DNA of 63,692 bases, the filler included, from a candidate division TA06 bacterium SM23_40 (GTDB taxonomy: Bacteria > LJUI01 > SM1-40), in assembly GCA_001303705.1 (NCBI GenBank). It is 6 parts of 6 records of this genome, joined end to end, with 100 filler letters (N's around TTAATTAATTAA, not from the genome) between each part and the next. Parts side by side here need not be neighbours in the genome. Positions count along the whole stretch, not along the records: positions 1 to 13,616 come from LJUI01000062.1; 5 more parts are not named here. The stretch is one strand, 5' to 3'. Shown in pieces: positions 1,771-5,844 of the stretch. A model generated the notes under the pieces. It ran no database searches, was not told the DNA's origin, and saw nothing but the letters and a program-made list of their open reading frames with translations. The first letter of the stretch is position 1. Every line of letters starts with the position of its first letter. Position numbers and translations under genes: made by a program.

Positions 1771-5844
<4,074 letters not shown>

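Follow-up and report, generated by a model that had tools for sequence, protein, structure and literature searches.

An alanine in place of the near-universal asparagine of the RNA polymerase catalytic loop in an uncultured candidate division TA06 bacterium

The asparagine that precedes the catalytic aspartate triad of the bacterial RNA polymerase beta' subunit (Asn458 in Escherichia coli), or the NADFDGD motif to which it belongs, is called universally conserved in the cited passages of papers from 2021 and 2026 (2021: PMC7862312). The rpoC gene of candidate division TA06 bacterium SM23_40, however, reads AADFDGD at this place. A first-pass annotation, made from the sequence alone, took this for a possible natural active-site variant with altered or compensated sugar selection, in a motif considered near-invariant. 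The locus therefore raises a question in three parts: whether the alanine is genuine, whether it stands alone among bacteria, and how an RNA polymerase would work without this side chain.

What we call here the window is the whole stretch of DNA analysed, with a length of 63,692 nucleotides. It consists of several draft-assembly contigs joined together, with runs of N at 13617-13716, 22790-22889, 38234-38333, 51807-51906 and 58271-58370 (440 N in all); rpoC lies on the contig at 1-13616, and a separate contig occupies 22890-38233. The genome from which it comes (G000) has 2.88 Mb in 189 contigs, with a completeness of 89.76% and a contamination of 1.32%.

The rpoC gene and its catalytic loop

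The features of the window to which the text refers are the following:

1771..5844, minus strand: rpoC, RNA polymerase beta' subunit, 1357 aa (ORF list and translation, TIGR02386)
4459..4482, minus strand: catalytic loop F-A-A-D-F-D-G-D (gapless alignment to E. coli beta' 402-515)
4477..4479, minus strand: GCC codon of Ala456, at the position of E. coli beta' Asn458 (translation and alignment)
4486..4488, minus strand: Tyr453, at the position of E. coli A455 (context comparison)
4576..4578, minus strand: Arg423, conserved, equivalent to E. coli beta' R425 (alignment)
3097..3126, minus strand: trigger-loop segment, residues 907-916, with Gln, Arg and His intact (E. coli Q929, R933 and H936)
5928..9704, minus strand: rpoB, beta subunit, directly upstream of rpoC (TIGR02013, 1807 bits)
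9783..12683, minus strand: rplL, rplJ, rplA, rplK and nusG, the usual genes before rpoBC (NCBIfam equivalogs TIGR00855, NF000955, TIGR01169, TIGR01632 and TIGR00922)

The beta' reading frame is full-length, contains zero stops, and reaches 1796.4 bits in the rpoC equivalog TIGR02386 (cut-off 963.5), with residues 18-1333 covered. The operon order is the normal one, nusG-rplKAJL-rpoBC. The frame, the family score and the usual upstream genes thus bear out the annotation in that the remainder of rpoC is intact and sits in its normal operon. A single rpoC match is present in the genome, which is only 89.76% complete. On the opposite strand, a 404-aa ORF (594-1808, plus), which may be a gene, shares 38 bases with the 3' end of rpoC; a search of NCBIfam gave it no match at E<=1e-10.

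Retranslation gives the same reading of the loop, and at the same coordinates, as the annotation had reported: from 4482 to 4459, the minus strand runs TTT GCC GCC GAC TTC GAT GGA GAC, with Ala at 4477-4479. It is also correct that two base changes separate AAC (or AAT) from GCC. Residues 400-513 align to residues 402-515 of the E. coli beta' subunit (PDB chains) without gaps, so that Ala456 occupies the place of N458. The aspartate triad that holds metal A is present in DFDGD, at residues 458-462 (D458, D460 and D462 in the protein's own numbering), and the arginine of the N-R-A-P-T-L-H-R region is kept, as it is in all 240 aligned sequences at the column of E. coli R425. The absent asparagine of the NADFDGD signature is the only feature of the beta' family, among those tested, that the window's RpoC lacks. 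Asn before ADFDGD is a signature of the beta' family and not a requirement, nearly but not strictly universal.

The same alanine is found in sequences from other sources. The 90% protein cluster of this RpoC holds seven distinct sequences, from JGI/IMG, NCBI/UniRef and ENA, which are 99.85-100% identical and all read AADFDGD (7/7). In a run search, 14 holders of the sequence were found in 13 studies of marine sediment, seawater and estuary metagenomes, with no RNA runs among the holders listed. Four runs (X3, X4, X5 and X8), from as many studies, keep GCC in their contigs, which differ from the window solely at 3939, 4601, 4861 and 4918, and at none of the positions 4477-4479; single contigs of X3, X4 and X5 cover 3900-5100, and one X8 contig covers 4442-4996. 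This comparison used assembled Logan contigs, in which minor alleles within the populations would not show. In the same runs, short contigs of other organisms match the conserved stretch and diverge just past 4476 with ATT, that is, AAT (Asn) on the coding strand.

Ala456 is, hence, real, and is fixed in this species as a natural variant of its housekeeping beta' subunit, and an assembly artefact is very unlikely. A broader version of the same doubt would have the alanine stem from an assembly, binning or sequencing error, or from a decaying extra copy, with the working rpoC in the unassembled 10% of the genome. The 189 contigs and 89.76% completeness of the assembly, as well as an inspection made on the level of contigs, leave it some room, but we hold it to be highly improbable and already largely refuted. 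The codon is the same in all seven records of the three sources and in the four runs of as many studies, where strain-level differences occur elsewhere; the full-length frame is free of stops, scores high for its family and takes the canonical place in the operon; the protein deviates at no more than 2 of 203 highly conserved columns; and two base changes would be required.

Asparagine as the rule and its recurrent replacement

The near-invariance that the annotation ascribed to NADFDGD is borne out, though not as strict universality. Asparagine is the overwhelming rule: the motif is found in 29 of 29 other rpoC loci from distant relatives; among the nearest other protein clusters, 118 of 119 carry Asn and the remaining one Gly (P0100); and a pattern scan of 400 other genomes, representing more than 270 families, gave none with a codon not starting with A at this column. 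As this non-Asn pattern demanded a first codon not starting with A, the residues Ser-AGY, Thr, Lys, Arg-AGR, Ile and Met are invisible to it. The rule is not strict, however, since at least 113 species genomes have another residue, be it Gly, Ala, His or Tyr, and one order is essentially all Gly. The reading of the TA06 protein as a unique exception consequently fails.

Within its own surroundings the lineage is isolated. The window's genome is alone in its phylum among the genomes compared, the protein that comes next shows 74% identity in the conserved core, and none of the nearest clusters falls between 74% and 99.85% identity, so that, in the set compared, the lineage amounts to a single species without close relatives. 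Its RpoC groups with Asn-type proteins.

The wider census was based on a pattern scan of one genome per species, covering 185,579 species, in which at least 120 loci matched. Among the 120 matches listed, 113 are intact non-Asn genes, with Gly in 101, Ala in eight, His in three and Tyr in one, and Asp is absent at this column from all of them; the other seven listed loci have broken contexts, which look like frame or assembly faults. According to the record titles, some of which look mislabelled, the Gly genes among the matches listed belong to Chloroflexota (50), Armatimonadota (9), several Patescibacteria groups and some Bacillota. An additional scan of metagenome contigs, specific for Ala, gave eight loci: two of this organism, one spurious, and five of other lineages. 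All the carriers seen are metagenome-assembled or uncultured genomes, which may be why the variation has gone unremarked. In the literature searched, that outside subscription journals, no paper containing GADFDGD or AADFDGD was found, and DFDGD did not appear among the matches listed from the literature on Chloroflexi and candidate phyla.

Some of these records deserve a separate mention. The intact genes with His (3) or Tyr (1), L122, L127, L133 and L138, are assembled loci from MAGs labelled Christensenellaceae, Dehalococcoidales, 'Bacterium BMS3Abin06' and Gammaproteobacteria. Patescibacteria-like contexts occur in records titled Gammaproteobacteria, Thermodesulfovibrionales or Nanoarchaeia (L044, L057, L079, L093, L108, L139 and others), and these Gly or Ala loci under foreign titles are probably mislabelled or mis-binned MAGs. 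Two Asn-type proteins from the phylum of G042, L188 and L198, show DFDGDTMS around and after the Asp triad, where DFDGDQMA is usual.

The distribution of the replacement ranges from isolated genomes to a whole order. In the phylum of G043, the Gly pattern was found in 6 of 201 genomes. In that of the Gly-type G669, none of 150 other genomes is non-Asn, and the Asn pattern was recovered in 54 of 61, G669 being among the seven without it; this recovery calibrates the sensitivity of the scan at about 90%. The Ala-type G042, whose RpoC, at 67% identity, is among the closest to that of the window, comes from a phylum in which the 29 other loci all have Asn (Ala in 1/30). In the order of G666, on the other hand, 35 of 61 genomes carry the Gly pattern and one of 61 the Asn pattern, so that Gly is the settled state of the whole order; four of the 35 (G694, G707, G709 and G721) are unpublished genomes, without which the count is 31 of 57. 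Around the Gly-type gene L047, labelled Chloroflexia, the 120 nearest clusters divide into 95 with Asn, 24 with Gly and one with Ala, the Asn set including records named Chloroflexus sp. and Thermomicrobium sp. Gly and Ala interchange within this Chloroflexia-labelled clade, since P0135, with Ala, is 86% identical to L047.

On a FastTree phylogeny of 240 sequences, built with the trait column masked, at least five changes from Asn to Gly or Ala can be counted. The figure is a minimum, as the Gly clades are sampled here without their Asn-type neighbours. In other bacteria, too, a small residue, in most cases Gly and sometimes Ala, has taken the place of this Asn many times independently. Ala456 is a rare but tolerated natural variant, not a one-off.

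Expected consequences and the search for compensation

The functional background comes from E. coli, and is given here as it stands in the cited passages of each source. Arg425, Asn458 and the trigger-loop residue Gln929 are able to contact the 2'-OH of the substrate, with R425 as the major determinant of ribose selection; in the N458S mutant, the 2'-dGTP selectivity is about 4-fold lower at binding and slightly higher at incorporation (PMC7862312). The same mutation destabilises the pre-translocated state (PMC6821320) and significantly increases the rate of intrinsic RNA cleavage (bioRxiv 10.1101/2024.06.20.599782). N458D and M932L both leave the backtracked state less occupied (PMC6237748), and at saturating tagetitoxin, N458D elongation complexes shifted no more than 20% to the pre-translocated state (PMC3424550). 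N458D is, moreover, very slow and has gross defects (PMC2034486), so that not every replacement of Asn458 is benign.

If the E. coli mutants are a guide, Asn458 would act as an auxiliary contact to the 2' and 3' hydroxyls of the A-site nucleotide and not as a catalytic residue, the essential work being done by the Asp triad, R425 and the trigger loop, all of which are intact in the window's RpoC. Removal of the side chain would leave the ribose looser in the A site. The binding of NTPs is then predicted to be somewhat weaker, and the discrimination against 2'-dNTPs a few-fold lower. The pre-translocated and backtracked state would be less populated, which would make the enzyme forward-biased and less prone to pausing, and intrinsic RNA cleavage would be faster, while catalysis itself would be kept. 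The recurrence of Gly and Ala, and the fact that none of the 113 intact genes listed has Asp, fit a site at which loss of the side chain may be better tolerated than a charge. The idea of altered sugar selection is probably overstated, given that the published effect of N458S is about 4-fold at binding and that the main determinant, R425, is conserved; the functional effect is probably modest.

We consider it probable, then, that this gene encodes the sole functional housekeeping beta' subunit of an uncultured bacterium of marine sediments or estuaries, in which the change of Asn458 to Ala has become fixed as a nearly neutral or mildly tuning substitution, tolerated without dedicated compensation. 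As for Ala456 itself, a nearly neutral or mildly tuning effect that selection tolerates with no dedicated compensating substitution would be the most likely one.

The annotation had pointed to the surroundings of R425 and to the trigger loop as the places to look for compensation. No clear compensating change was found in either: the arginine (R423) is conserved in 240 of 240 sequences, and the Leu of the trigger loop is common in Asn-type proteins. This Leu, at the position of E. coli M932, was rejected as a candidate, as among 147 Asn-type proteins it is present in 113, with Met in 24 and no trigger-loop match in 10. At the 203 columns with a conservation of at least 95%, the window's RpoC deviates at two (L430V and L780M), where the median is one, and both substitutions are also present in Asn-type proteins. 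A global comparison of columns between Asn-type and Gly/Ala-type proteins gave top columns that merely split phyla, at which the window's protein keeps the residue of the Asn type.

The beta subunit was compared in the same manner. Its sequence has nine deviations at 304 columns conserved in 27 relatives, and three at the 298 columns that are conserved in every one of the 28 rows, which, with a median of three, is typical. No tie was shown between the deviations at conserved columns in RpoC or RpoB and residue 456. Where 26-27 of 27 relatives agree on a residue, RpoB deviates at 8316-8318, 8238-8240, 7602-7604 and 5997-5999 (minus strand). The substitutions seen in this subunit are Glu for Asp in Q-F-M-D-Q, Thr for Arg in G-G-L-T-R-E-R-A-G, Arg for Tyr, and Ala for Glu in P-E-S-F-N-V; the Asp of Q-F-M-D-Q is the residue that we take to be D516 of the rifampicin region in E. 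coli.

The one place where a coupled change may be looked for is Tyr453, three residues upstream of the alanine. If the loss of Asn were offset by a coupled change, this tyrosine would be the most plausible partner, and the geometry of the A site and its sugar selection would stay near wild type. Counted over unique contexts, an aromatic residue at the A455 position is found in none of 217 of the Asn type, in four of 110 of the Gly type (Phe) and in three of 15 of the Ala type (Tyr). The context C-Y-A-F-A-A-D recurs identically in G041 (L118), an unrelated genome of 0.6 Mb whose RpoC is 57% identical. Seen in the sample only with Gly or Ala at 458, the aromatic residue hints at some compensation, a lead and not a finding. 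On the tree, the association comes down to 4-5 independent pairs, too few for significance, and in most Gly- or Ala-type proteins the position is taken by an ordinary residue (A, T, S or E). With fewer than six pairs, and with L430V and L780M shared by Asn-type proteins, a compensated enzyme is unlikely.

The loss of Asn458 could, alternatively, have been selected, either for resistance to natural inhibitors that occupy the substrate site or stabilise the pre-translocated state (tagetitoxin-like compounds or nucleoside analogues), or for a forward-biased polymerase that proofreads itself. This would agree with the behaviour of the E. coli mutants in the passages cited above, where N458D shifts no more than 20% to the pre-translocated state at saturating tagetitoxin (PMC3424550) and N458S cleaves RNA faster (bioRxiv 10.1101/2024.06.20.599782), and with a replacement of repeated independent origin that has become fixed in one order. 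No ecological or genomic correlate of the replacement was found. The correlate tested was the absence of a Gre factor, in the sense that a faster intrinsic cleavage might stand in for GreA. Neither PF01272 (the GreA/GreB domain) nor TIGR01462 gave a match in the window's genome, 89.76% complete, and a GreA match (PF01272, TIGR01462) was not found in the Ala-type G042 either. PF01272 is, however, present in nine of the 10 other Gly- or Ala-type genomes tested, and in 27 of 61 genomes from the mostly Asn-type phylum of G042, where all the matches but one belong to open frames that, at about 490-815 aa, are not GreA-sized. The candidate was thus rejected, as the absence does not track the variant. 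The sporadic occurrence on terminal branches in three phyla (6/201, 0/150 others and 1/30) fits drift as well as selection. We find selection of this kind quite improbable. Also rather unlikely, in our estimate, is its combination with the aromatic residue, in which the loss of Asn458 would be an adaptive and recurrent re-tuning of the substrate site, helped in some lineages by the aromatic at A455, that yields a forward-biased, low-backtracking and self-cleaving enzyme, an enzyme resistant to A-site inhibitors, or both. Were this true, the 'universal' NADFDGD would be one of two viable active-site designs. The tolerated, nearly neutral or mildly tuning substitution remains the reading that we prefer.

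Significance and comparison with known systems

Models of substrate sugar recognition and of translocation rest on Asn458, or on NADFDGD, as universal, and there are living bacteria whose sole RNA polymerase lacks that side chain. For enzymologists, these natural variants are natural experiments on the A-site contact to the ribose, and they support the published view that R425, and not N458, carries sugar selection. For annotators and motif screens, they advise caution, as a non-Asn motif should not be read automatically as a pseudogene or an error. The variants would also bear on natural antibiotic susceptibility, should they change how A-site inhibitors bind. With a functional effect that is probably modest, this would be a useful correction rather than a new mechanism.

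The closest functional parallel is found in the E. coli beta' mutants N458S and N458D, the sole source of functional data, which concern the same residue in the same enzyme family and likewise lose the Asn side chain. Those are engineered and carry Ser or Asp, whereas the variant described here is natural and carries Ala; and whereas N458D is very slow, in the cited passage (PMC2034486), the natural Ala enzyme must support growth. Among natural proteins, the GADFDGD beta' subunits (from groups labelled Limnocylindria and other Chloroflexota, Armatimonadota, Patescibacteria groups and some Clostridia) similarly have a small residue in place of Asn458, with the remainder of the motif intact, but it is Gly and not Ala, and they come from other phyla and have origins independent of that of the window's RpoC. 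Other AADFDGD beta' subunits share the alanine itself (L044, L058, L062, L109, L118, L124, L128 and L147, as well as the metagenome loci L161-L163, L166 and L167), and L118, from G041, additionally shares the Tyr three residues upstream; with an identity to the window's RpoC of only 39-63% over the 190 residues that surround the motif, they are independent origins. The plant polymerases Pol IV (NRPD1) and Pol V (NRPE1) have also kept DFDGD (ADFDGD in Pol V) and lost the Asn, according to the cited passage (PMC2605557). However, contrary to these specialised and non-essential eukaryotic paralogues, whose active-site region is widely diverged, the window's RpoC belongs to the sole polymerase of a bacterium and is otherwise conserved.
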